DNA of 63,794 bases, counting the filler, from Asterionella formosa (Eukaryota), in NCBI GenBank assembly GCA_002256025.1. It is 15 parts of 15 records of this genome, joined end to end, with 100 filler letters (N's around TTAATTAATTAA, not from the genome) between each part and the next. Parts side by side here need not be neighbours in the genome. Positions count along the whole stretch, not along the records: positions 53,637 to 55,007 come from NKIB01002813.1; 14 more parts are not named here. One strand, given 5' to 3'. Each line of letters begins with the position of its first letter. Within the stretch, counting starts at the first letter, position 1. Made by a program: the position numbers and the translations under genes. Under the pieces are notes generated by a model. It was not told where the DNA came from and ran no database searches. It worked only from the letters and a program-made list of their open reading frames with translations. Shown in pieces: positions 4,751 through 63,794 of this stretch.

Positions 4751-5447
4751 GATACTCGTTTGCTGTCAACAATAGTCTCTAGAATGGACCCGTTTTCGTC
4801 TTGGCTTTCTTTCCTTCGTTAATGGTTGCTATACCCGCTATTACTATGTAGTACGTTGTTGTGGAGTGAGAGTGTGTTTACTCGGAGTACACTTTACCGG
4901 TAATTGTTTGTGAAAATACGACATTCTATGTATTTACCAGTTACGACCGGCAGTATGATCCTGATAAATCATTGGTGCAGGCTGCCCTGCCCTGCTTACG
5001 CTCGGTCATTGTCATTTTTTATTCACGCACTTGCGCCTGTTTTGAGTTTACCGCGTTTAGACGAAATAATTAGCATAAAACCTACGTCACCATTAACTCA
5101 TGATATTATCATTCAAGAGAGAATTGATGACGTTCTCTATTTAAGGCCTGCCTGTCCTGCGTCACGTTGTCCATTTCAGCAAAATTGCAGCACCAACTGC
5201 TTGCAGAAGTATTTCATGCAACAGCGACGAAGCAGCAGCACACCAAGCAAAAAGCAATTGTGTAATGTTTTACATGTATGGATCATATTTTGGCTGGTCT
5301 GAATATTTATTATTATTACCTGGCGGTAATACATCATAGCACAATTATTACATATTCCTGAATATACCGGTATTCGAATTGAACATACTCCATATTATCA
5401 AGCTACCATCCCAACTGATTGAGACCCTTCACTTTCCTCCGGCTATC

Positions 5448-7118: not shown

Positions 7119-9516
7119 AAGGGAAAGGCCTGATGCTGATGTACTTGGATTTTTCTCTTGACAGGAGTTGTCATAAATATTTTGTTTTTATGATTTTAGT
7201 CGCCAATGTATTAATTATCGGAAAAACACCTGCTACCGGTACTCCGAGTACATGATAGGCGGAATAGTCCATTGAAATGAGAACCCCTCTTTATGATTGT
7301 GTATTGCTTTATGGATGTGATTGCCGGGGTGGTACCTGGTAGCTAGTAGCTACCAGTCCAGTACCAGGTATATCCAAGTTCCCTAGTGAGCGAAGCGAAC
7401 TCCTCATCTGTGCTAAATAGACGAGTACCTGTAATAGACCTACCTGTACATCAATACATTCTTTTCACCATCCCGTAATGGGTAAAATTAAGCCCAACGA
7501 GCAGTTCTCCATTATTTCCCTTTAGGTGTCTACCGGTATTATTTGTCGACTTGGGACATGTCCATACCTTTTTGAACTGACAATATTGGTATATATGTAC
7601 ATGAAAAAACCCATGTTATAAGAGCGTTTACCACTAGTATACATTAGCTATTCGAAAAATTAAACCCGCTTTAACTGGTGTGGGTTTAAGGTTCTTGTAT
7701 TTGAACCCCTGGCTCGAACTAGGGTTTAAAAATAAGTTTCATCATAAAATGAATATGTATATCGCTACTCGGGGCCTTCACCATTGAACTCCCTTTCCAT
7801 ATGCTTGTTAGATACAGTCATTGGTCAAAGAATATCAAAGCTCTCTAGAGTTTTGCAATGCTTCCAATGCAACATGGGCAACAGCATGTTGATTCTTTGA
7901 ACTGCCTCAAAAAAGATTTACTGGAGCTCTATTTCACAGATTGTCATGCACAGCAATGACATTAATAAACATAATGAACAAGAGGAGGGATTCCAGTACT
8001 AACAAACAAGAGGATGCATTGCTACAAAAATTTAACATTTAAAAATTTACGTTGAATGTATATTCAATGTCAGATAGTAAGTAATCTAGATATTTCGATC
8101 ATTAGAGCACAACGACGATATTATCAATCATATCACCAACATAATTTGTGTTATAAAACACACATGCTATAATATTTTATCATTATCAGAGCATGCCCAC
8201 TACTAGTAGTACTGTAATGTCCAAGCCATGTAAAAAGTCTATGTTACATTACACCAGTATTATATATTTTATTCTAAATGAACTTATGCAATAGGTAAAT
8301 AGACTTAAGTGAGAACTTGAATACACCAAATTGGTTACTAATTGAAAGCATGAACTTTACATGTATTGTACCATACTATGACCATTGAGGGTCACTATTA
8401 GATCAGATGAGACTGATTGTTGTAAATTGAGGTGGAACTTGATGATGTTGGTGGCTATTGCGGAAGCTGTTGTAGTAGAGGGCGTGGTAGGTGTGAGTGG
8501 TGGAAAACCAATAACAACAACAGGTGAAGGAGGGAAGTTGGAGCAAACAGATTATTTTTGGGATGACATACTTGGGCTGTACTCACAGCAAATTGAGATA
8601 CAAATGTCTCCTGGTGTAGATTCAGTAAAAATGGATGATATCAGTCTCCTCGTTTGAAGTAGCTAGTTTCAACTCCTGACTATTCTTGGTATCAGGAGTT
8701 GCTGACAAGTGTGCACAAGCATGATTGAAAGTACAGCAACTCAAAAAACTTCCAATTGTAAACAAGTTTACGAAGCGACAGAAATTATGGAAGTGGAGGA
8801 GGGAGGAAGCAATTATGTCAGCAGTTTTTCCATAACACAAAAAACTGTTTTTCTTCGGCAGGAACGCGAAGTTGGGATTAGGGATGTAAGGTGGCTAAAC
8901 TATTTACGAGGGTTGAGCAGCGTAGAGTCAAGGTGGAGTTTTGTTGGTGTAGGTTTGTATGGGATACTAGCCATGACTACCCTGCTACTAGAACTTTGAG
9001 CTGTACCCTTCTTCACTGCCCACCACACTTTAATTGACAAAGTGTTTGAGGCATATATTCCAGATGGAACTGTGACACAGATTGTCAATCAAATGATTTC
9101 TGATCATCACACTAGTGGTCATCCACTACTACTAGGAAATAGTATTCAGATTATAACGTTTACTAGCATGCATGATAATGATATATTAGCTAATTTCATG
9201 GTCTCCATTTTTCTAAATATCATATGGTCCAACTGTCCGACCAGCAGTATATTTATTCTTCCGGTAGCAGCAATGGTATTGTCGCTAACTTTGTCCTCCA
9301 CAGTAGTACCAGTGAATTATTAGCGCTAGCATCAACTACAGGGCGGTTTTACTGTGAGTTTAATTGTTTATGACTATTACATTCCTAGTGATAGTTTTCC
9401 TGTAGTAAAAACAAAACAAACAAGAAGTATTCTTGAAAACAATTATTCTTTCTTCTATACAAAGAAGAAAGCTTGTATCTAATTCTTTAAAAATTGATCG
9501 AAATTAATTTTGTGAT

Positions 9517-30270: not shown

Positions 30271-30718
30271 TTTGACCATAATCATCAACTTTAAAAAACT
30301 CACATCTTTTGAATTAGGTAGCTTCTTTCCAAATTAAGCAGACCTAATTTAAGCTGCAAGCATCATCTACATTTAGTTGCTAATGTGCTTGATTATAGTT
30401 GTGTGTGAAATTTGACTAAAATATTTTGAGTCGAAACATGGGGTAAATTCTATTATATGACTCCTACCTAGGTCTTAGGTGGTACCGGTACCAGTACTAC
30501 GGACTGTGTATGGTATGTACGTAAGATCAGTTACCGATATACCGGTAGCCTACCGGTAGTATTGTTCTTGTTGTCAGGTGCATGATAAAAAAAAGTTATT
30601 TCCATCCGCTCCCCGTTGTTATACGCGTAGGTAGTTGTGACTGCTGGTTGTTCGAGAGGCAATCATAGTAGTAATAGCACCGGTAGTGCTGCAGCCCACC
30701 TCTTCCTCCATCATAGCC

Positions 30719-33700
30719 ATGTCGGACTCTTCAGCAATAGTAGCAGAAGCAACGATCGAAGTAGAAGCAGAACCATTAATATCAGCGGAAGCCGACGAGG
30801 AAGAAATTCCGATTTCGCTGTCGCAACAGCTCCATTCAGATTTGTCCAAGCTCACTCACGATCCAGCCTTTGTGGACTCGCTGCGTCCCTTCGTGGAGGA
30901 GGTCGACGCGTATATATCGCTATCTGGTGCAGCGCACGTTCAGCTGCCGCCCCTGGATTGGAACAAGCTCTTCCGGAAGGCATATTCCATCTGCCTGTGG
31001 GTCCGGGTTTCCGTGGAAGTAGACCCCGCGCAGACCGCCGCCACACCCACTGCCACACCAACTGCGACTCCCGCTCGCAAGCTCCTGTATCGCTTCAGCA
31101 CACACCCTGAAGATGTGGCGGGAGTGGGGATTTGTGTCACACTTGGGGACTGGCTCTTGCATCCCGACGGAGTGACTGTCTCGACGACCTGTACCGCCTT
31201 CTCGCTCCCGCCCAAACAATCCCTGGCACAGCTCCCGCTCTACCTCAAGGCCAACACGTGGCAGCTGCTGGCCATTTCGCACATATTTCCCTACTTGAAA
31301 AAACCGCAGTGGACCATCTCGGTCGATGGCACGAGCATGGGGGTGGCAGAAGTGCTTTACCCGGTCCTGGACTCTAATGTCATTATGGGATACTGCACTC
31401 TCACAAGCCATTTTACAGAAGGAGGCGTTGCTGTCCTGCAACAGTCAGAAGATGACTCCAATAAGTCCGCTACTGAACTCACTAATACTGGAGTCAAACA
31501 GAAACTCACTATGACTTCATTGGATGTAGCATCCATCGCCATCTACCCAGAAGTGATCCCGACACCCATGTTGGCACTCTTGGCCTCAGCTGGACCACAC
31601 TTATCTCTTCAATCACATGGAACTATTGTCACACTTTTGCCTCCAGTGGATAATTGGACCAAAGGATCTAGTTTACGTGGTGTCAATGTTGGTATACCCC
31701 TTGGTGTCAGTGGCGGGGCTTTGGAATTGCAGCGATTGGCATCCAGACGCATTTTCTATTTTTCCGCCGCCAATGCCAAGACGTTTTTTAACAAAATTAT
31801 TATTCCCATGAAATATTTACCAGGAGAAACAGAATCCACGCCTAAAGTTGGACTCATACAACCTGGTGTTGTAGGACAGAGAGATGACGATGATCCACCT
31901 CTCCTATACATCTTCGGACAAGATGTGGTACTACAGCATTTGCTGAGCAAATACTTGATGCAATGCAAGGGACCAATTGATACACAATTATTGGATGCTT
32001 CTAAACTGGCATCACTAAGCATTCTGGAACAAGGTCTTCTGCCAAGTATGGTGTTACCATTCTTTTTGGCCAATGCTCCTCCAGCAATGGGATTGCAACT
32101 CCAACAGCCACTTTACAAAAAATCATTGAAGATGCTGTATAATTTGTATACCAATGATGGATTATGGGCCAGCAAATTAATTCTGTTACTTTCGACCACC
32201 ATTCGCCATGGTGGTGGACGAGTTCATGAAATGGTACTCCAAACAGGCTTATTGCACGTGTTGGGAAGTACCTTGAGACGGTCTTTATTGCGTGCACAAC
32301 AGCTAAACGTATATGCATATTCGACATTAGACGAATTCTTGGCCAATGTCGTTCCTGATACGCCCTATTGGCGTCCTTCGCATGCCCAAGCATGCCCCAA
32401 AATAATTCCACTGGACATTTTGCCTGCAATGGCTAATCTGATTCAAGTATGTTGTGGTCTGCGAGCAGATCAATCAACACGATGGACATCATTAACATAT
32501 ATTGAACGATCTTCTGACATGGCCATGACGGCCGTCTTTGGACTAGCGTTGAATTTGGACATTTGGGGCAAACAATGCGGTATACTATTGGGTGTGGTTT
32601 GTGAAGCCTATGCAAATGTCCAAGGTGGGCATTTGTTACGACACGAAATACCTATCCAAACCATGATGGATTTGTTACGAACCAGACTCACGATACACGA
32701 AGGTGATGATACGTTGTCGACACATATGGCCAATTTAGTTCAACACATGTTGTTGAGTTCATTGTCGAATCGAACCTATATTGGACAAGCCGAGCGCGAC
32801 ATTGCCTGTTGTATGGGAGTCTTGTCAGATTCACCATTGGGGAGTTTTGGCGGTCATGTTATTTTGTGTTCATTGTTCAATATAATGGATTGGTGCAATC
32901 AGGGCAAGGACAGTGATGAAAAAATGCACATTGCCTCTCGATTGGCACGGAATCTAATCATGAGTCAATATCACGATGTCGTGGCTCCCATGCTCCTGTC
33001 TCGTTCATTTTTTTGTTGCCCAGTAAGTACTACAACAACAACAGCAGGGAGCTGGGAAGCTCATTGGCGAATGGCACTCACTATTTTTGCGTGGGTGTCG
33101 GCCATTGCTGGAGAGGAAGGAATCGTTGCAGCCCAATCGACAGGATCACTTTTGTTGGCGTCAGGTGTGGCGGGGAGTTTGACTTCTTGCGTTGCAGAAG
33201 GTGTTGGTGATTTGTACTTACCGGCACCAACCATGACATTAATGGTTGGCAAACAAGAATCGTGGACATATACTGACCTTTTAAGCGACCGTTTGGCTGT
33301 AATGATGCCCCTCCTTCCTGGGTTGGTAATGAGTCTCTTGTCGTCGCCTACTGATGTTAAGGCCTTGCAGACCCTGAAAGAACTAGTCACGTCCGTGAGT
33401 GGTGCCATGCATAGGGTAACGACGGCCATGACACAATCGACACGACGTTCTCGGAAAATAGTAATTTCCGCTGCTTTGAGCCACGTAATGATGCAGCATG
33501 GTCCATATCTCTTGATTTCGGCAGTGTTATTTGAACACTCTATTCGGCCGAAAAGACTCGATTCTGAATCAGATAAAAATGGCGAGGATCAGCGTAGCGG
33601 GGAGCTCGAGAATCTTAAGGAGTGCCAGAAGGAGATAATCATGGCGCTCACAGATTTGATCGAACAGGCAATGAACGGCGAGGCTTCGTCGACCATATTG

Positions 33701-36700
33701 TGGAGCGTGGTATTATCAACGTTAAAAGAATCGGTCAAATATAGCAAAGCAACAGACAATTTGCAAAAGGCCGAAGATTTTGGCAAGGTTCTGGCCCACG
33801 ACATGCTCTGTCGTATTGTGGGCATCATCCTTACTAAAGCGCAGAAACGCGAGTATGAATGGGAAATGTGGTCCGATGATATGTGCTATGCTATCGCAAG
33901 ACTGGTTGATTTGGTAGAAGAAAAGGATTTATTGCTTATTACAACGGGAGATAAAATTTCAGGCTCGGAGGACAAGTCGTTTTCGGACGACCAGATTACA
34001 CTATTGTGTTCCCTTTTGACTGTCTTGAAATACGGTCGCGACATGACAGGATGGTGCCAATTATTACTTCCTACTCCACCTGAACCCTCGAGCGAATCCA
34101 CCAATAATGAAGAATCCTCTGTATACTTAGACTTTGGTCCACCCCGTGACGATAGCTCGAATTCGGCACGAGTCGACGAAAATGGAATCAGTATGGCGAG
34201 CCTAGATGCCCGCCATCGTTTTGTTCCATCCGAAGCCCCGGGAGCATCCTCAAAGTTGCTGTTGCCTATATTGCAACCTTGTCTTCGAATCGTATTGGCA
34301 TCTCTTGGGAAAGTTCGGTCTGGGACCAATATTACTTTTCCCGACAAGGTGCCTTCTGAAATTTCTCTTCTCTCGCATATATCAGAAGAGTTAAAAGAAA
34401 CACTGACAGCTGCCATTGTGGGTCTTTCGTTTCCAAATGCTCGTGACGTCTCGCTCAACGGTATGGCCTATCTTCGTCGTGCCAACGAGTATCACAAAAA
34501 TGTTCTGGACAAGGAGGCATGCATAGCTTGTTCTAGTCTCTTTGTTGCGTTGGTGGAAGAGATTCGTGTTCGGTATGAAGGCGAACGCCGCAAACGTGAT
34601 CGTGCTCTCTTTGACGCCTACGAAGATGATCAGACAGGAGCTGCGTCAGCTTCACAGGAGGTGGAGCGCTTGCTATTGGGTGACGTTGGGGTGATTCCAG
34701 GAATGCTCGCTCCTCCAAAGGCGAGAAAGGAAGAACGCAAGGAGATGGAAGAGATTGACTTCTCATCAAGTGAATACGACTCAAGAGGGGCTGACATTGA
34801 TACGCCTACGTCAGGAAGTGAAGACTTTGTCATGTTTCACGAAGCGTACACGGCTACTGATAGCAAGGGCTGGGACAATTTATTTCGTTCAAGCGGTGGT
34901 CAAGCGAAGATGGGATGGGATAAGTATAAGGGCCTTGGATCAGCATTGGAGGATTGCTCGTTTTTGATAAAATCTTCCCCTTCCGATGGAAACGCTGTCA
35001 CTTCGGAAGCACAAGCTGATATGTTACTGGCTCTGTTGGGACCATATTTGGATACATGGGACGAAGGTGCCGCCAGGGAAGCAGCCGAAACCGAAATTGT
35101 GAAGCTGTTTGACGACGCAAAGATCTCGGACAAGGTCGACATAGCATCTCGTCAAAATCGTCAAAACGATTCAGCTGCCGAAGCAATGAGCACATATATC
35201 GAGATGTCGTCATCCGAAAAGGCAAGATTGTCTGAGGTAATGAATGTATTCTTGCCCTCCCATCGCTACAGCTGCCAAGCTTACGCCGGACGGTACTGTT
35301 GGTCCAAGTACTTTGAACAGGTCGAACTTGATGATAGTTGCAGTATGGACAGCCTTTGGGAGCGTGGCATATCTGATGGTAATCGGGACATTAGAAGTCG
35401 ACTCATTACAATGCCGTGCAACCCGCAATTCAAGAGGTATTTACCCAAGCATCTTGATCATGGTATAGACGAGCCAGTCACAGGACCACTCCCAGGGGAG
35501 CTCAGTGATTTTGCGATCACTGAACAAAATGACGGCGAGGAAACGGCCGCCCTTTCGAGAGCTACTGTTGAGGAAATCCATAGTGCCCTTATGGGTGCAG
35601 GCAACCTTGCTATTGTTGACATTACTAAGAAAGAAATATCTGAGGATGAACTTCCAGATTTATTGCTGGACGAAGGCATTGATAGTAACGATGACGATGA
35701 AGAGTTTGGCGATGGATCGCTTGGCTTTCCGTCACGAGAAGAAGAATCTGACGAAAGCTCTGGCAAATCCGAGGGAGGGGATACATCTGCTACTGATTCG
35801 TCAACATTCGACGAAGGAATTGACATTGACGACCCATACAATTTGATACCTACGAAAGCTGTGGACAGGCCTCATAGCGGCGCTCACCACAATATCGCGT
35901 CGAGCCTATACGCACATCCACCGGATAATTCCTCTTCTATTTTGAGTTTAATGCATTCAGCAACAGCTGCAAACATGATTGAAAAAGCTGTTGAAAATTG
36001 TCTACACGTGAAGGCTGAAGGTAGCAGAAAATGCACCATGTTACTCAGCTCCACACACCTGATCCTCGAGTATGATGCTGAAGCGGAAGGACTATATGAA
36101 GGAGAGATGATGGCAGTTCGAGAAGAGGCAGATCGCCAAAGACTTGTTGAAGAGGTTGGTGGCATATCAGTGAATCCTGATTCCGCTCAGAAGGAAGGAA
36201 TAGAAGAACAGCTCGAACGCAGGCAGAAAGAGATGGCGGCAGTGCGGCCAAAGTCTATTCGATGGAATCTTTCCGAGCTTTCGCATGTATACCTCCGAAG
36301 GTATAGATTACGAGACTCTGCGGTAGAGATGTTTTTCATTCCCTCGGGTGGAAGCTCCTATGGTGGCTTTGGCCTTTTCTCCCCTGCGACTTCACTTTTC
36401 CTCGATTTCGGTTCAGGAAAAGATGGAAATAAGCGACGAGATCAGGCAGCAAATGCCATCATGAAACGATCGCCTCCACAAACTATTAAACAGTTTCCTG
36501 AAAAGAGCGTACACTTCCTTCACGAGCAGCTGAGTCGACTCACAATGGGATGGGTGGAAGGTCGTATTACGAACTTTGACTATCTCTTGCACCTAAACAT
36601 TTTGGCAGGCAGAAGTTATAATGACTTATGCCAGTATCCAGTAATGCCCTGGGTGTTGAGCAATTATACTTCAGAAGAGATTCCTGATCTCGCAGATCGA

Positions 36701-38992
36701 TCCAATTTCCGTGATTTAACCAAGCCTATGGGTGCTTTGAACAAGAGGCGTCTCGAAGATTTCATGGAGAGATTTGAAACCTTTGCTGATCCTACGATTC
36801 CACCATTCATGTACGGAAGTCATTATTCGACATCTGCCGGAGTGGTATTACACTTTTTAGTGCGAATGCATCCTTTTGCTGGTTTACACAGACAGCTTCA
36901 AGGTGGAAACTTTGATGTTGCTGATCGCCTTTTCAGTTCAATCCCTCGGACCTGGGATATGTGCACTGGTTTTTCAGCCGCTGAAGTGAAAGAGTTAACT
37001 CCAGAATGGTATTGTAATCCTGGCTTTTTGAAGAACTCTAACCAATTTATGCTCGGAACATCACAAGACAAGGAAACAATTAATGATGTTACCTTGCCTC
37101 CTTGGGCCAAAGGCTCACCGGAGCGATTTATAGAGATCATGCGAAATGCGTTGGAGAGTGATATATGCACAGAAATGCTTCCTGATTGGATCGATTTGAT
37201 TTTTGGACGAAAACAGCAAGGCCCAGAGGCTATCAAGGCTCACAACGTTTTCTTCTATTTAACGTACTATGGTAGTGTCGACGTGGCCTCAATCGAAGAC
37301 GAAGGCTTGCGTCAGGCAACTGAGCTTCAAATCGCACATTTTGGGCAGTGTCCGATGCAGCTTTTTGTACGACCACACATTCGAAGGACCACTGAGATTC
37401 GGCCATTTAGCACCTTTTACCAAATGCTAAGTGCCTACTCTCAAGGAGTGGGAACTCATGACCGTCGATTCGATTTGAAGCCTGATGGAACACAACGCTT
37501 ATTCGGTGAGCCTATCTTCTTGCCTTTCTTCTCCACCCCCAAAAGCCACATGGTTCATCTAGATGCCCCACCTCCTGGTCCGCACGTTCCGTTAATTGCT
37601 GTCCGTCTCGCTGGTATAGACCGGTGTTTGGCTGTTGACAGAAATGGGATTTTCCACTCCTTCCGCTGGGCTTGGAAATCCGATGTTCCCGAGTCCTCTG
37701 AGGACCAGGGGGTTTCTGAGGTGGTAAAGCATACAGACATGGTCGACAAGGGTTGCTTCATCGCCCAACGAGAGCTACCCCGATTCAGAACAGTTCCTCG
37801 TTTGATTCACGTCAAAATCTTCAAATCATATATTGATTCGATACCAGCAATTGCAATCTCAAAGACATTGTTTGCTGGTAGATCTGTTCTGCTTGTCCTG
37901 AGTGACGCTGATGGTCGTGGTGGGTTGGCTATGCAACTTGTTGATCCTGCTAAGGCATCGATCAAGGGTGAAGCTATTGTTCCGTCTGTTCACTCAGCCT
38001 TAATTACTTGCATTGCGATGGATCCGATTGGAACTGCTGCAGGGCATGGTGGAGTGGGTGGCGAGCTTGCAATGGTCGGATCCGCCGACGGAAGTTCATC
38101 ATTGTGGCGCTTTATGTCATCGCATTTCTTACCATTAAGACCACGAATTCGTATGAGAGGACACGCAGGTGCCCGAATTCATTCTGTCGCATTGAGTAGT
38201 GCTATCCATGTTTGCGCATCGGCGTCCGCCAATCGACTCTGCATATTTTCAATTGGAAATGGTTCTATGATTCGCTCTTGGGGTCCCCCATCTGATACTT
38301 TGGAAGGTTTTGACGATGCCATCACCAAGACGGTCTTCGCTGACACTCCAGCTTTGTGCTTGAGTGTGCAGGGATTTGTCTGCACCGTTTGCAAGACATC
38401 TATCTTTGATGAACGCAAAGAAATCATTCGCGAAGTTGTAACTCTACATTTGTTCAGCTTGGAGGGAGTCAGTATTGGCAGCAAAGCTTTGGAATCGTGG
38501 AGGGGAACTCCAAACAAGATCACTTCTACCCCTGATGGAACATCAATTTTTGTTTGTGGTGGACGAGGTGTTACTATTCATCGCTTGTCAACCATCACTC
38601 CTCTTGAATTTATTGACGAATGGCATATAACCGAGACTGAGGAGCTCGATGGTGACCTTCCAAGTGCTTTTGATGTTGACTTTGGCCCATCGTTAATGCG
38701 ACCTGTTATCGGTGCTGTGGCCTTGAGTGCAGGTGCTCTTCGCTTGCATGCGTTATCTGGAATTTCAGCTTGGAGTGAACGCCACAAGGCCCGAGCCGGT
38801 CTTGGCCTCGGACACGCCCTATCAAAGCCAGCAGGTCGCATTAAGAACGCACTTGGTAGAGGCTTAGGCTATGGAAAGTCAGCTCTCGGGATGGGAAAAG
38901 ATGTTGCCAAGGAAGTTTCCTCTGACGTGAAGGAGAGGGGAGTTGGAGGCTTCCTTGCTGGAACTCTGTTCCGGAAAAACCAGAAATTGTAG
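30719..38992 (+). CDS. BEACH-domain protein (neurobeachin/LRBA-like: ConA-like, PH-BEACH, WD40), intronless
   Basis: ~2757 aa from ATG 30719. [13 protein letters not shown] (PH); [58 protein letters not shown] and FGQCPMQLF (BEACH); C-terminal WD repeats. Confidence 0.95.
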   Translation: [2757 protein letters not shown]

Positions 38993-41094: not shown

Positions 41095-41899
41095 GGTTCA
41101 ACGGGAGAGAGAGTCTGATGACTGATGTGCTTATTATGTACGCGGAGTTCTGCCGATACAAATTTATTATGAAATTATGATGTGGTCCCTCGAAAAAGCA
41201 AATATTTCACAAGATTTTTGTTCGTGATGGATTCGTGTAAATACATTAATTGCCGATGGGAAGTGCAACACTTCGAGCAGTATTTTTTTTAGCATAATGG
41301 TGTCACCAATTGCCTTTGCTGCAATCTGTGTAAAATGTCGATATATATATTCATATATGGATAAACATGAACATATACAATCATGTGTTTGATGTTGAGC
41401 AGCTGATTATATTTGTTTCCACGAAAATGTATTCTAAAATAATCGATTCTGCTAGAATTGACATCATACAGGTCTCCTATGTACCAGCGGATAGTTTCAG
41501 TACCTGTAGATAGTTTCAGTACATGTACTCAGTACCCTTGGTACCAGGTACCAGGTACCAGGTACCACCAGGAAACTGCTTTGAACCTTCTATTTCACTA
41601 CGGTACATTCAATCGATTAGTATGTACGACTAATACTGAAATATTCATTTCTATCACCTTACCAGGTACCAGTTGCTCCAGATGTTCACGAGAGGTGGAG
41701 GATTATGATTGGACGAACGATTCAACCAGATTCCATCAACAACTATCTTATATATATGAATGTTTATAATGATGCATTTATCCATTATTGAGGTTCAAAG
41801 CAGTTTATAAAAATATTTTAATAATGGAGAATTAATTTATGTTCTACATCGAAGACAGATTACAACATTTCATAATTATTATAATGAAATCACACAAAA

Positions 41900-45200: not shown

Positions 45201-45852
45201 CCTGTGCAAGTTGCGGTAATTTTGGTCAATCTAAAGATTTAGCTGTCTTTATCCCAGATTAAAATGTTTGTTTAATTAATTAAGCAAAATTACCGTAATT
45301 TGCTGTTACCAGGTGCCAGCCAGTCCCTTAACCTACCGTTGGCAATTTCCTGTAAAATGAGAAATTTAGCAATTTTTCTTTCTAGCAAAAACCGTCTTCT
45401 ACTTTAACTCCGAGATATGTACCGTGCTTTTATACCTTAGTCTACCTGCCACTAAAAGGACAAATAATCGTGTGTACGGGTCTGTCACGGCTATGTATGT
45501 ATCGGGTATGCACAGACTATAGCTACCGGTATATACAATACCGGCATACCGGAATGCTGTTCTGTATATACCAGCAAGTTGCGGTAATTTTGCTGAATCT
45601 AAAGATTTAGCTTGTTTAAATCCCAGATTAAAATGTTAGTGAAAGCAAAATGAACGCAACTCGCAGTATCAGCAACCTGTTGCCCTGGTGCTAGTGTGCC
45701 CCTACATTGTGCTTAGCTATCGTAGCAGGAACTGGTATGGAACTACCGGTACTTGCCTGCAAGTTGCGAAAAGTTTGCTGAACTAAAGATTTAGCTTTAT
45801 TTTTATAGAATATTAAATTTTTTATTTAAGCAAAATGACCGCAAGTTGCTGG
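45201..45852. mobile_element. Three copies of a ~100-bp MITE (45201-45306, 45571-45666, 45756-45852) with ~23-bp TIRs, consensus TA|CCAGCAAGTTGCGGTAATTTTGCT...AGCAAAATKACCGCAACTTGCTGG|TA
   Basis: Shared interior CTAAAGATTTAGC. Imperfect TIRs in each copy, with TA at most ends. Confidence 0.8.
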
Positions 45853-46209: not shown

Positions 46210-47775
46210 NNNNNNNNNNNNNNNNNNNNNNNNNNNNNNNNNNNNNNNNNNNNTTAATTAATTAANNNNNNNNNNNNNNNNNNNNNNNNNNNNNNNNNNN
46301 NNNNNNNNNACGTTGAGGACCATGAACATACCGTATGTGTGCGTAGAGCCAACAAGCAAGATGAGCGAATTGATGAGAGGAAATTGCATGTATTCACATA
46401 ATATCGAGAAACCTCATATAGAGACACACATGTAATGGAATTATACGTATATAAATAGAAGGGAATTCGGAGTATATGATACACTGGTTAGAAGCAAGCG
46501 GTTTGGCAGACATGAAATAACCTTCATATCACACATACATACAGGGTACCAGGTAGTTACTAATTTAAGGTGTTTTCTACCCAAAATTTATACGTACATT
46601 CGTATGTGTGTACAGTTACCATCTTGCCAGATACCCGGTACTCCGACGAACTCATTTCTGATTGTACTGGTGTGGACCGTATGAATGATATGGCGGTACA
46701 TGTAAATAATTTTTAGTATTTGAGAAAGGCAGAGGCGTTGAGCCGTTGAATTCAAGGAGTTACTACCGGAAGGTGTCTCTCACGACTATACATACATACC
46801 CGCAAATAGTATACACTAAACGGCAGTTATCTGGTGGTTAGTCTACACTTTTTGTATACTTTTAGACTCTACTCAATTCCTCTCACGTACCAGGTTCCAC
46901 GATGCTCCTCAGGTAGCCGTACAAAAGTATACACTCAAGTGTATACTTTCCACTTCAACTATCGGGGTGTGCTTTGTGGACGTACAATGTCATTAGCGCA
47001 GTACCAGGTAGGAGGTATTTGATATTCTACACCACCAGCCAGCGGCCGTTTTCAATTCCCGACTCGATCAACTAGTACCAGGTACCAGGGTACCGGTATG
47101 CTGGTATAGGTACAAATGTACCAGTGCCAACTCCCCTAAACCCTGGTACCTGGTTTCCAGGTAACATACCTGTACTCCGGCACCTGGTAAAAGGGGTACT
47201 CACCTGTTACTGGTAAAATTCAACCCAAGTTGTATTTTTCTGTAGACCCCTGGTATTGTCCTACTCGGGACACCTGGTACCTTGACAGTATTGACAACAT
47301 TTTACCGTGGTAAAATTAGGTACTGACCTCCAAGAATTTCAACCCGGTTGCATTGGCGGTTGAATTTTTCCTCTTCTTTTGGTTGAATTTTCAACTCAGA
47401 TTAGTCGTATATTGTTGTAACCTCTTGGGAAATTCAACCACTGCACCATCATAAATCAATCTTATTTGTCCATGTACGTAAGATTTATATATAGTACTAC
47501 CTGGTACTCGGAGGACCAGGAACCACCACCAGGTAACTGGTGCCATACTACCGGTAGATGGTTGCCCACACACCAATATTTATAGAAGGCTTCCTGAATA
47601 GACTATTTACAGGTAATATAGACTGATATATACATAAACATCATATATATTTTAAATTAAAGCAAAACTAGGCAGNNNNNNNNNNNNNNNNNNNNNNNNN
47701 NNNNNNNNNNNNNNNNNNNTTAATTAATTAANNNNNNNNNNNNNNNNNNNNNNNNNNNNNNNNNNNNNNNNNNNN

Positions 47776-52071: not shown

Positions 52072-53907
52072 NNNNNNNNNNNNNNNNNNNNNNNNNNNNN
52101 NNNNNNNNNNNNNNNTTAATTAATTAANNNNNNNNNNNNNNNNNNNNNNNNNNNNNNNNNNNNNNNNNNNNAGCACGACACTGACTTGTAAACCATGATG
52201 GTACTTCATTTTGATTTGGTTGTTGTTGGTCAATTGGCGAGAGGAAAATATACCAATGTGATGGATTATTGTTGGTTTTTCGTTTATTTGTGGCGTTTTC
52301 AGTCAAAAAATATTTTAGAGTTCGGCAACGGGACCGGTCGTGAGAAGCCGACATGTTATTTCAAGGCATGACCCAGGTTAAATAGTGTACTACCGGCAAA
52401 CCCAGCCAAGGCATTCGCTCACAAGAATGGTCGACTCCGAGTGTTCAAACGTTGATAAGAACTGCAGAAGACAAAACCGGTATGGTGTGATAGAAAGCTG
52501 GTGGATAGGTACAAACTAAGCATGTTTCTTTTTTCCTAAATGGACTGAATAGGCAGGAGGCCGTCGATTTATTTCACCCAATGATATTAGACGAAAAGTG
52601 AACTTCACTCCTCAAGCAAGCTTGCCGTATTTACGTTATGTTTTGTGGTGCCCAAAAAAGGGAACCACATGATGATGTCGCTCACAGAGGGGGGACAGCC
52701 AGCATCTGCGGCATGTTTCATGTCCTAGGTCTTGAGTATGTACAGCTGATGTCTACCAGGGATTAGAGACCAGTACGGTACCTGGTAGTACTGCTGGAAC
52801 TACCGTATGGAAAGTAACTACAAAAGAAAAGGGCCGGGTGGTGGTACGCACCATGTTGTCGTTCATTTTTGCGACCTTATAACAGGAGGTATATTTTAGG
52901 CGACTCGTCCATGCATTCTTTGGAGTGAATAATTTCCGCGGGAATGGAAACATGCATTGGTTTCAAGTTGCAGAGTACGTACCCAGCACAGGACTACCTG
53001 TACCTGGTACCAGGTAACCTTGGTACCAGATACCAGGTACCAGGTACCGATACATTGACAAGGGTGTCTTTTTTCCCGCAGGAACATCGTCATTTATGAT
53101 GATCTGAAAGGACTACCGGTACCAGGTAGTCTACCTGGTACCAACTCACTCGAATTGCCGGTACACGCATGTGGTCTATTTTTGGTACCAGGTACCAGGT
53201 ACAACTTCGTGATCAATCGTCCTCTCGGTCTTGCACAATTATGACATTTTGCCGTGATGATAACGAGCCCCGGTACTCTAGTGTACCGGGGTTTCGTACC
53301 TTCACAGTTTGCCTACCGGTAATCATTTCAAATCAGGGGTTTATTTGATTTGGTTTTACATCCTGCCTTACCGCACATTTGGGCGAGATGCATTTTATCT
53401 TGATTGAAGTGCATTGAAACTGTAGCCGAATATGCACATAGGCCATGACGATTCGCTCGTGTTCGCTGTCTAAAGCAGGGTCCCAGGTATCGTCCTGCAA
53501 TTGCACCCGGTGTGTCCCCTGCGCGAGCTCGGAGTCNNNNNNNNNNNNNNNNNNNNNNNNNNNNNNNNNNNNNNNNNNNNTTAATTAATTAANNNNNNNN
53601 NNNNNNNNNNNNNNNNNNNNNNNNNNNNNNNNNNNNCTGATGCTGGATTAAACCTAACGAGAGCAGCGGCAAAGAATGAAGGTTTCCAAGCAACCACTCT
53701 TCGCGCACCAGTGCAAATCTGTCTGCAATTGGTTTCTGCAAAGAAACGTCGTCATTGTTCGTCTTTTCTATGTCATCTGTACGACGACAAGGTGCGCAAC
53801 ATAGTTACGGTACCTGGTACCGGTACCTGGTACTGGCATATCATGCACTCCGGAGTACATAGTAAAAGGTACCAGGTACCAGGTAGCTCGTTCGAATGTC
53901 TCACTAG

Positions 53908-55007
53908 CGAAGTAACTTCGACACAATTACCGTCTCGTCCGTTTCGTCTTTCTCCATATGTAGTCTGTGTAGAACTAGCTTTGTGGGTACTTAGCTGCAA
54001 TATATAAAATCGACCCATCAAATACTAGAATAGCGAGCCAGAAATACTAAGTAGAAGTAGCATAAATGGTTTTTGAATTCGGTGCTGAGTACCGGTAAAC
54101 GTGTCCCTTTTCCAAAATCCGGGTTCAAAATGCGGATCCAATCTCCGGGTTCTGCGGCAGTCGAGTTGCGCTTTGCCGTGGGAGGGACGTAGGGTGGGTG
54201 ATTTTAGACTATAAATTGCGAAAGGCTTGGCGATGCTTTAGACTGCTTCTCTGAATCGTTATTCAAAGAATTGTGTGCTTCACCCTTGCACTAATTCACT
54301 TGTTTAACCTCGCGTGGTTGCTCTTGTCTTCCCTTGTCTTAGCTGCCGACTCTTGGTTGTTCGATTCAACTCTAAAAGCTAGAACTTAATAGTCGCGTTG
54401 TCGCTATATTGAATTCTCAGCTTCGACTCCTTCGATTCGCGTCGCGTGGTTTGTATCATCCGGTGCTCGCCTGATATACTAACTCCATCGCGTCCGTCCT
54501 TGTCCGTAATATCAACGAAGTAACTTCGACACAATTACCGTCTCGTCCGTTTCGTCTTTCTCCATATGTAGTCTGTGTAGTACTAGCTTTGTGGGTACTT
54601 AGCTGCAATATATAAAATCGACCCATCAAATACTAGAATAGCGAGCCAGAAATACTAAGTAGAAGTAGCATAAATGGTTTTTGAATTCGGTGCTAAGTAA
54701 ACGTGTCCCTTTTCCAAAATCCGGGTTCAAAATGCGGATCCAATCTCCGGGTTCTGCGGCAGTCGAGTTGCGCTTTGCCGATCCACTTTCTAGTCACGAC
54801 GAATTATGTTAGATGAGCCGTGGCATGCGCGTCTCGCCCTGCCATTGTCGATCGAGATGTGAATGCTATTGTATTTGCCGGCGGATGGAAGAATGTCGTT
54901 GTCGTGATCATCTTTTGGCTAACTGACTTCGTAAATTCCGCCACTTGCTTACGGATGTAAATTAGAAATGCGTCCGATTTCCAGCGACCAATTAGCATGA
55001 CCATGTA
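53908..55007 (-). mobile_element. 3' end of a Ngaro/PAT-like YR retrotransposon: YR C-terminus, B1 (54780-54516), A2 (54515-54199), 20-bp spacer, B2 (54178-53908)
   Basis: B copies are identical except 2 substitutions and a 6-bp indel. A2 matches 963-1279. The YR motif lies upstream. Confidence 0.92.
54804..55007 (-). CDS. Tyrosine recombinase C-terminal fragment (5' truncated)
   Basis: MLIGRWKSDAFLIYIRKQ is the GRW.S.AF..YIR motif containing the catalytic Tyr of DIRS-order YRs. Confidence 0.9.
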   Translation of the reverse strand, partial: YMVMLIGRWKSDAFLIYIRKQVAEFTKSVSQKMITTTTFFHPPANTIAFTSRSTMAGRDAHATAHLT

Positions 55008-62431: not shown

Positions 62432-63794
62432 ATATCAGTGCCCTGATTGGCTATGGTATGGGAAACAACCTACAATCTATGAACACTTGATCCAATTTGG
62501 ACGAATTGGATATGTCACCATAAGAACTCCTGTGAATAAGCTTGATGATAAAGCAATAAAATGTGTCATGATTGGATACTCTGAAAACCACTCAGGTGAT
62601 ACCTACCGACTCTTTAACCCTATAACCAAGAAGGTGATTCAGAGCCGTGATGTAAAATGGATTGAATGGCACGGAGAAACGAAACCTACTAATGATATGA
62701 CCATGTTCAAGACTGGGATTGATGAAATTGAGTTTGAGGAGGAACTTGACCAATCTGTTGCGCCAACTCCGACTGTCATCCCAGATGATGAGACTGGATC
62801 ACTTTCGACTCTTAATGACTTGCAGGTCTCTGAAGTAGGGAGGAATGAAGCTTCAAATACTTCAAAACCTGCTATTACAAGAGCTGAACGAGAGCTCAAG
62901 AAACTTGGTCATGAAACTGCTCCAATGATGTTTACACTACGTTCTGGAAGATTGCATACTATTGTAGATGATGATGATGATCTGGATTCTAAGCCTACTT
63001 CATCCATGGAGGTTCATAACATCTACAGCTCTACACTTGCATCAGATCCAGGTGAACCCAAGACCTACAGTGCGGCACTGAAAGCAGATGACAGAGAAAA
63101 ATGGATTGTGGTACAAGAAACTTGTGGAGCGTCTGATTCTCATTGGAATGAAACAGAGCAAAGTGGATCCATGCATTTTCTTCTTGAAACGTGATTTGAA
63201 ATTGGTTCTAATTGTTTGTATCTATGTTGATGACTGCATTGTTGCAGGAGAACAAGCCGATGTTGACTGGCTTAAGGCTGAAGCCAAGAAGCATTTCACC
63301 ATAAAGGAACTCAGACCAATCAAGAAACATTTAGGAGTTTGGTATGACTTGGGAGAGGATGCTGATGGAAGATTTCTTGAATCTACTATGGAGGATTTCG
63401 TTGAAGGAATGTTTGAAGACTATAAGAATCTCTTTCGACATTATCCCGCAATTGCACCAACTCCCAGATTGCCAGGTACAAGTTTGTCCAAGAATGATGC
63501 CCACACTGTTCTACATAGTGAATACAGATCCATGGTTGGAAAAATCTTATACTTTGTAAAGAAGATATCTCCAATTTGTGCCAATGCATGTCGAGAATTG
63601 TCTCAGCATCTGGAGAATCCAGGAGAGGCTCATTGGAAGGCAGTTCAACGTCTGTTGGGATTCTTATATGCAGACAACAAACATCGACGTATGAAGATGC
63701 GAACCCCTAAAGAAATGCGCCCTATGGATGTTGTTGACAGTGCATTTGCAATTAACCCTGATACTCGCAAAAGTACAAGTGCATATCTCGGAAC
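62432..63794 (+). mobile_element. Ty1/Copia pol fragment (integrase C-terminal SH3-like region, RT, start of RNase H) with an internal RT deletion
   Basis: KLDDKAIKCVMIGYS...YRLFNP...SRDVKW, EPKTYSAAL. A second frame from 63109 reads WYKKL...DPCIF...IYVDD...YRSMVGKILY...HWKAVQRLL...DSAFA.NPDTRKSTS, open to the end. Confidence 0.95.

Follow-up and report, generated by a model that had tools for sequence, protein, structure and literature searches.

A probable transposon excision footprint in the outer B repeat of a putative tyrosine-recombinase retroelement of the diatom Asterionella formosa

A 1371-bp contig of the Asterionella formosa genome assembly (GCA_002256025.1) holds two nearly identical repeats that disagree at a single TA dinucleotide. 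The inner repeat, B1, reads ...CTAAG-TA-AACGTG, whereas the outer repeat, B2, reads ...CTGAG-TA-CCGG-TA-AACGTG. This raises the question whether the six bases were gained by B2 or lost from B1, which process made the change, and whether similar traces are found in the surrounding DNA. The window, by which we mean the whole stretch of DNA that was analysed, is 63,794 bases long. It is made up of 15 contigs and is not one molecule; the joints are 100-base spacers of the form N44-TTAATTAATTAA-N44. Two of the contigs are large (22323 and 22320 bp) and 13 are small, including the contig that carries B1 and B2 (53637-55007). The coordinates of all features are given in Table 1.

The retroelement that carries the repeats

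B1 and B2 are sharply bounded direct repeats. On the minus strand, the contig runs from the end of a tyrosine recombinase (YR) gene through B1, A2 and B2 into host DNA, and the stop codon of the recombinase lies 23 bases before B1. Judged by this arrangement of the sequence, we assign B1 and B2 to the B repeats of a putative split-direct-repeat tyrosine-recombinase retroelement of the Ngaro/PAT type (order DIRS). PAT and Ngaro YR retroelements are described in PMC4157794 with split direct repeats in the order A1 ... B1-A2-B2, the internal repeats being located downstream of the YR gene. The contig shares with these the order YR gene, B1, A2, B2, and A1 is found at the 5' end of the element in contig 1. 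There, a second S segment has host DNA before it and the first ORF of the element (ORF1) behind it, and we therefore identify it as A1. It differs from the S segment of the 1371-bp contig at 7 of 317 bases, and an A1 followed by ORF1 is also present in the metagenome loci L001, L002, L004 and L005. The element has a unit of approximately 6.5 kb and putative RT/RNase H-like and YR-like ORFs, which would also be shared with Ngaro and PAT elements. It is unlike them in that its putative RT ORF falls in no Pfam family, its YR scores below the Pfam cut-off and a 20-bp linker is placed between A2 and B2. The earlier note had spoken of a retroelement terminus; this was right in substance, although standard profiles recognise the two enzyme domains only weakly.

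The part of the YR gene that is present in the contig, its last 67 codons, is 100% identical to the end of P0002, a protein of 385 aa from public data. P0002 gave a weak match to Pfam Phage_integrase (E 0.0033, 17.7 bits), which is below the cut-off of 27.1. Among its Atlas neighbours (0.97-0.98), 14 of the 30 named clusters are in sets with Phage_integrase. The alignment of P0002 relatives has invariant R164, H301, R304, W327 and Y335, which we take to fit the catalytic pattern of tyrosine recombinases. Searching the P0002 profile against PDB sequences gave no matches, and Pfam assigned no families to the 67-aa recombinase end or to the ORF of contig 1. The AlphaFold model of P0002, made with a 10-row alignment, had a pLDDT of 36.7 and was too poor to use.

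The layout of the element was drawn from nine metagenome loci encoding relatives of P0002. In these loci, the recombinase gene is followed by B, the 317-base S, a 719-codon ORF, a 1009-codon ORF and again the recombinase gene. Two of them, L005 and L007, belong to one metagenome contig of 6,646 bp that both starts and stops inside the recombinase gene, and the retroelement unit is therefore estimated at approximately 6.5 kb. With E allowed up to 10, the 1009-codon ORF (P0025) still matched no Pfam family, and it gave no meaningful sequence match in the PDB. RVT_1 and RT_RNaseH are present among its Atlas neighbours (0.94-0.96), the RVT_1 set accounting for 17 of 30 hits. P0025 also has YLDD-type and ADALSR-type motifs, presumably reverse-transcriptase-like and RNase H-like, respectively. 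The high-copy element appears to be a divergent lineage that would be missed by standard annotation.

It should be noted that the ends of the 6,646-bp contig overlap by approximately 126-156 bp, a stretch over which they show 2 mismatches and one gap of 30 bp. The overlap could stem from head-to-tail copies, from a circular form or from an assembler walk through the A repeat.

B1 and B2 were also considered as the repeats of an LTR retrotransposon. This was rejected, as only 337 bp separate the two repeats and the YR gene is located outside the pair. The repeats are furthermore without what we take to be the usual end letters of LTRs, contrary to the LTR reading. A fragment of a Copia-type retrotransposon is found elsewhere in the window, at 62433-63792, where it runs off the window end (Pfam SH3_retrovirus, E 4e-17; RVT_2, E 5e-9).

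Table 1. Location of the retroelement parts, the TA site, the related open reading frames and the MITE copies. Positions are those of the window unless a metagenome locus is named.
Feature	Position	Strand	Remarks
Host flank outside the element	53637..53907	.	Low-copy in the public runs; stack of TACC(W)GGTA words at 53809-53885
B2, outer (3'-terminal) B repeat, 271 bp	53908..54178	-	Has all three private changes: A at 53973, G at 54087, +6 bp
TACCGGTA (TA, CCGG, TA)	54090..54097	.	Insertion of 6 bp in B2; B1 and the family have a single TA
A2: 20-bp linker (54179-54198) and 317-bp S segment (54199-54515)	54179..54515	-	
B1, inner B repeat, 265 bp	54516..54780	-	Identical to family copy L001
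Unoccupied TA of B1, ancestral state	54698..54699	.	Same reading in 6/6 outgroup copies
End of the tyrosine recombinase gene, last 67 codons and stop	54804..55007	-	Contig ends inside the gene
A1: second S, 5' end of the element, contig 1	963-1279		97.8% identical to S of A2
1009-codon RT/RNase H-like ORF, P0025	L007:865-3891		
719-codon first ORF, P0026	L001:1931-4087		No recognisable family
MITE copy m1	45201..45306	.	TA on both sides; ends CCTG...ACAG(rc)
MITE copy m2, 96 bp	45571..45666	.	TA on both sides; left end begins CCAGC
MITE copy m3, 97 bp	45756..45852	.	Right end ...GCTGG followed by TA; left end CCTGC, nearest TA 4 bases off

Polarity of the six-base difference

A BLAST alignment of B1 and B2 has 271 columns, 2 mismatches and 1 gap. 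B2 has A where B1 has T at 53973, and G where B1 has A at 54087. The exact 6-bp indel and the two substitutions reported in the earlier note were thereby borne out in every detail. The gap slides by up to 3 bases (GTA...GTA), so that it can be described in four equivalent ways, "CCGG plus a second TA" being one.

We aligned B1 and B2 with six B copies from the metagenome loci. CCGGTA is absent from all six, including L006, a B copy of approximately 85% identity; the TA that is duplicated in B2 (TA-CCGG-TA) is single in B1 and in each of these outgroup copies. All six carry A at 54087, and five of them carry T at 53973, with a gap at that position in L006.

The public runs were checked using contigs of X1, X3, X6 and X11, which come from four studies, aligned on 53637-54515 at a likeness of 88; this stretch takes in B2 and not B1. 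The 24 runs listed consist of Logan contigs, in which rare variants are dropped, and not of raw reads. In the four runs, B and S are high-copy: their contig depths add up to tens to hundreds of times the depth of the unique flank. X11 has zero cover on 53637-53906. Every contig that reads across the site in the four runs has the form without CCGGTA. This form is aligned in X6 and X11 and is seen as clipped ends in X3 and X6. At 54087, the share of A in the four runs is 572.9/572.9, 94265/94650 (X3), 192.4/192.4 and 9.09/9.09 depth units; at most 384 of the 94650 units in X3 are not A, which is about half the unique-flank depth of 736. At 53973, the share of T is 505/505, 93834/99696, 106.6/122.9 and 9.09/9.09 depth units. 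Among the contigs listed for the four runs, from which rare variants drop out, none has the private letters of B2 or CCGGTA at the site. The assembly is the sole source of the CCGGTA allele of B2.

Because the six B copies and the run contigs across the site are without CCGGTA, we read the indel from these sequences as a derived insertion in B2, and not as a deletion in B1, with a single TA as the state of the family. The six bases had been taken as an insertion in the earlier note, and this interpretation holds: rather than most family members carrying CCGGTA, not one of the six independent copies does.

All three changes between the repeats are private to B2, and the remaining 809 bp (the recombinase end, B1 and S) are identical to L001. 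Paired terminal repeats, such as LTR pairs, are expected to be alike at integration and to differ by later mutations, and an outgroup polarises the changes. B1 and B2 form a pair of this kind, in which each change is polarised by the outgroup copies. Unlike in the usual dating of LTR pairs, the three changes are confined to the 265 bases of B2 (p = 0.015 if changes fell evenly), and the substitution at 54087 is only 3 bp from the scar TA, with a chance of approximately 6% if the two were independent. B2 may be older than B1, the rest may be a collapsed consensus, or the repair of the scar may have been mutagenic nearby. A flank preference at -3 as the cause of the A-to-G change was uninformative, with many sites stacked on each other. 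The description of the retroelement as young, also from the earlier note, fits the 809-bp identity to a metagenome copy, but this identity may only reflect a collapsed consensus, which leaves the age uncertain.

TA-bounded words in the window and a candidate donor

TACCGGTA is found 25 times in the window, compared with a mean of 0.31 and a largest count of 2 in 100 dinucleotide-preserving shuffles. Only a poly-C run is more over-represented among the 8-mers of the window. A sister word, TACC(A/T)GGTA, is found 33 times (CCAGG 22, CCTGG 11). Among words of the form TA-x-TA, CCGG (25), CCAGG (22) and CCTGG (11) are far above all others of their length, and words that would represent one end only, TA-CC-TA or TA-CCA-TA, are not enriched in the window. 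TA is present on both sides of 25 of the 116 CCGG sites and 33 of the 116 CC(A/T)GG sites (22-28%); the control cores CATG, CTAG, GGCC, GCGC, CGCG and ACGT have 0 to 6 TA-flanked sites each. The letters between the TAs are constant, and the flanks beyond them are unrelated from site to site, except where words stack. Stacking of the words leads to an excess of GGTACC, with 49 occurrences versus 6.8 expected. Overall, there is approximately one scar-type word per kb of window.

None of the 29 sites of the two large contigs is located in a Pfam-supported ORF (such ORFs make up 38% of the bases; P about 1e-6), and the 35 kb of retroelement sequence in the metagenome loci are free of scar words. 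The word thus behaves like a small insertion which only non-coding DNA tolerates. The TACCGGTA of B2 is exceptional for this retroelement.

Three copies of TACCGGTA at 30483-30558 are located just upstream of an open frame of 2783 codons (30641-38989) that includes the domains BEACH and PH_BEACH. Dense stacks of the motif are also found approximately 20-45 bp from both outer boundaries of the retroelement, at 1322-1510 near the 5' boundary (1279, contig 1) and at 53809-53885 near the 3' boundary (53908). A single insertion into a motif tract could have its two ends in contig 1 and the 1371-bp contig.

All pairs of TA that are 60-3000 bases apart in the window were scanned for an inverted repeat of 24 bases immediately within them, whatever its letters. 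The scan gave 2 matches only, both starting with CCAG. One of them is a cluster of MITEs (miniature inverted-repeat transposable elements) at 45569-45854 in contig 3; the other, at 47076-47189, seems to consist of stacked copies of the motif. The cluster holds three MITE copies, 96-106 bp in length, with ends of the form CC(A/T)GC...GC(A/T)GG and with TA abutting five of the six ends. The copies are decayed; two have damaged ends, and m3 has no TA directly at its left end. At the sequence level, the inserted letters would fit these ends (CC + GG and CCW + GG), in a match that spans 2-3 terminal bases of three decayed copies.

Stowaway-like MITEs are derived from Tc1/mariner elements and target TA. 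The MITEs of the window are likened to these on a length of approximately 100 bp, terminal inverted repeats and TA flanks. They are unlike Stowaway-like MITEs in that the window yielded neither an autonomous partner nor a transposase; no transposase families were found among its 18 + 46 ORFs. An element occupying the TA of B2 was found in none of the six metagenome loci and in none of the contigs listed for the four runs.

Origin of the insertion

We suggest that the site in the outer B repeat of the YR retroelement is probably a footprint, left on excision by a cut-and-paste transposon that targets TA and has CC...GG ends. The transposon would probably be of the Tc1/mariner/pogo type and a short non-autonomous MITE. 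We infer that an element once occupied the TA of B2, that the MITE family was its donor, and that cutting and repair took the following course. In brief, the tyrosine-recombinase retroelement would have integrated with its B repeats alike, or with a B2 already present from an older copy. A transposon would then have entered the TA of B2 that matches 54698-54699 of B1, with duplication of the TA. At a later excision, the non-transferred strands would be cut by the transposase a few bases inside the element, so that each flank keeps TA and CC(W). If end joining kept two element bases per side, the product would be TA-CC + GG-TA, and the site would have gained CCGGTA. The same event could also give the sister word, TA-CC(A/T)GG-TA, if overhangs of three bases overlapped at the last base. 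With one-end words not enriched, the end-joining repair would have to be unusually uniform.

According to PMC6943129, excision of Tc1/mariner elements produces 3' overhangs, the joining of which leaves 2-4 bases from the start or the end of the element, placed between two TAs, and the footprints of Sleeping Beauty are TACAGTA or TACTGTA. The words of the window share with such footprints the two TAs around a few terminal bases and the small, fixed gain at a former TA. They also share the paired forms that differ only in a central A or T, here CC(A/T)GG. They are unlike Sleeping Beauty footprints in having CCGG or CCWGG, 4 and 5 bases, instead of 3. They are unlike Tc1/mariner footprints in general in being as frequent as approximately one per kb and stacked into GGTACC-rich tracts, and are known here from sequence. 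The earlier note had proposed that the motif is added de novo. The gain in B2 was confirmed, but the letters stay the same whatever the flanks and agree with the ends of the MITE, so that they are better read as left by a transposon.

An artefact of assembly or polishing is unlikely. The six bases, and perhaps both substitutions, would in this case have been written into B2 from reads of another B copy or haplotype; the locus may then be without the six bases, or only some of the sequenced cells or chromosomes may carry them. The small contigs measure 1366, 1366, 1366, 1365, 1365, 1365, 1371, 1365, 1365, 1365, 1365, 1364 and 1363 bp. Descending order is kept by 12/12 of the others, and the contig with B1 and B2 is exactly 6 bp too long for its place, just as the earlier note had seen from its 1365-bp neighbours. 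The sole internal indel of the contig is also one of 6 bases. Since excess and indel coincide, the six bases were on balance probably added after the contigs had been ordered. It does not follow that both alleles are among the reads, as had been supposed: a correction step that replaced a collapsed family consensus using locus-specific reads would give the same +6 result, and gap closing or similar edits after sorting could equally alter the length of a contig (contig 2 has one run of 671 N). Mis-mapping is possible at the depth of B and S, and the three private features of B2 are absent from the listed contigs of the four runs, but this silence is weak evidence given that Logan contigs drop rare variants. 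Moreover, the two junctions of B2, with the flank on one side and with the linker and S on the other, are each present in independent runs (X6 record 24, X11 record 11). A random error does not produce the most typical word of the genome together with a clean duplication of TA, and the insertion must therefore exist in some B copy.

Two further alternatives accept the insertion as real but need no mobile element to have been there. In the first, a transposase, either domesticated or free, could nick or cut at TA, with a repair that adds fixed letters; this would be the de novo addition of the earlier note in its literal sense. The words are indeed very uniform and enriched only in the 4- and 5-letter forms, no occupied allele was seen at the B2 site in the six loci or the listed run contigs, and the window ORFs include no transposase families. 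However, fixed letters need a template, and the end of a transposon is, going by PMC6943129, the only known source of constant letters between duplicated TAs; a MITE with fitting ends and TA flanks does exist in the window. We consider such TA-specific break-and-repair quite improbable, and replication slippage, a templated patch or gene conversion from the nearby motif stack the least probable of all. The stack is 205 bp away (53809-53885), and the closeness of the substitution to the indel could mean a single patch. On the other hand, the insertion is not a tandem copy of neighbouring bases, no sequence that spans the junction is repeated elsewhere in the window over more than 11 bases, and slippage leaves unexplained why 22-28% of CCGG and CCWGG are TA-flanked with unrelated outer flanks.

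If the site is an excision footprint, as we prefer to read it, B2 as a single site is an ordinary, well-known kind of mutation. For most TACCGGTA-type words of the genome, the status as insertion is only guessed, and it is the polarity that the B2 site supplies. The scar of B2 turns a statistical excess into one documented mutational event, which took place after the retroelement family arose. New at this site are the firm polarity and the presence in the same window of a candidate donor, the TA-flanked MITE of approximately 100 bp with CC(A/T)GC ends. If the scars are equally common genome-wide, transposon excision would contribute in a major way to the small insertions and new CpG and CWG sites of diatom non-coding DNA. 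A search of the literature outside subscription journals found no description of such scars in diatoms.

Based on these observations, we speculate, while holding the scenario as a whole to be rather doubtful, that MITE insertion and excision are frequent and have led to uniform 6-7-bp scars at approximately one per kb, outside confirmed genes where tested, and to GGTACC-rich tracts. The family would then still be active, as it marks a repeat of a high-copy retroelement with copies that are 97-100% alike. The additional 6 bp of the contig would record a culture or a diploid with both scarred and unscarred B2, and the two substitutions of B2 would be by-products of mutagenic break repair.

Two other kinds of TA-bounded sequence were observed. 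A third near-palindrome, TA-CTC(C/G)GAG-TA, is present in three copies (1417-1427, 4879-4889 and 7240-7250), and CTCCGGAG is present once, at 53848-53855, adjoining the motif stack. The near-palindrome may have been left as a scar by a second family of transposons, one whose end letters differ. At 41540-41566, three head-to-tail TACCAGG units are closed by a TA, with TACCAGGTA at 41542, 41549 and 41556. This run is a 7-bp microsatellite and looks as if built from stacked scars.
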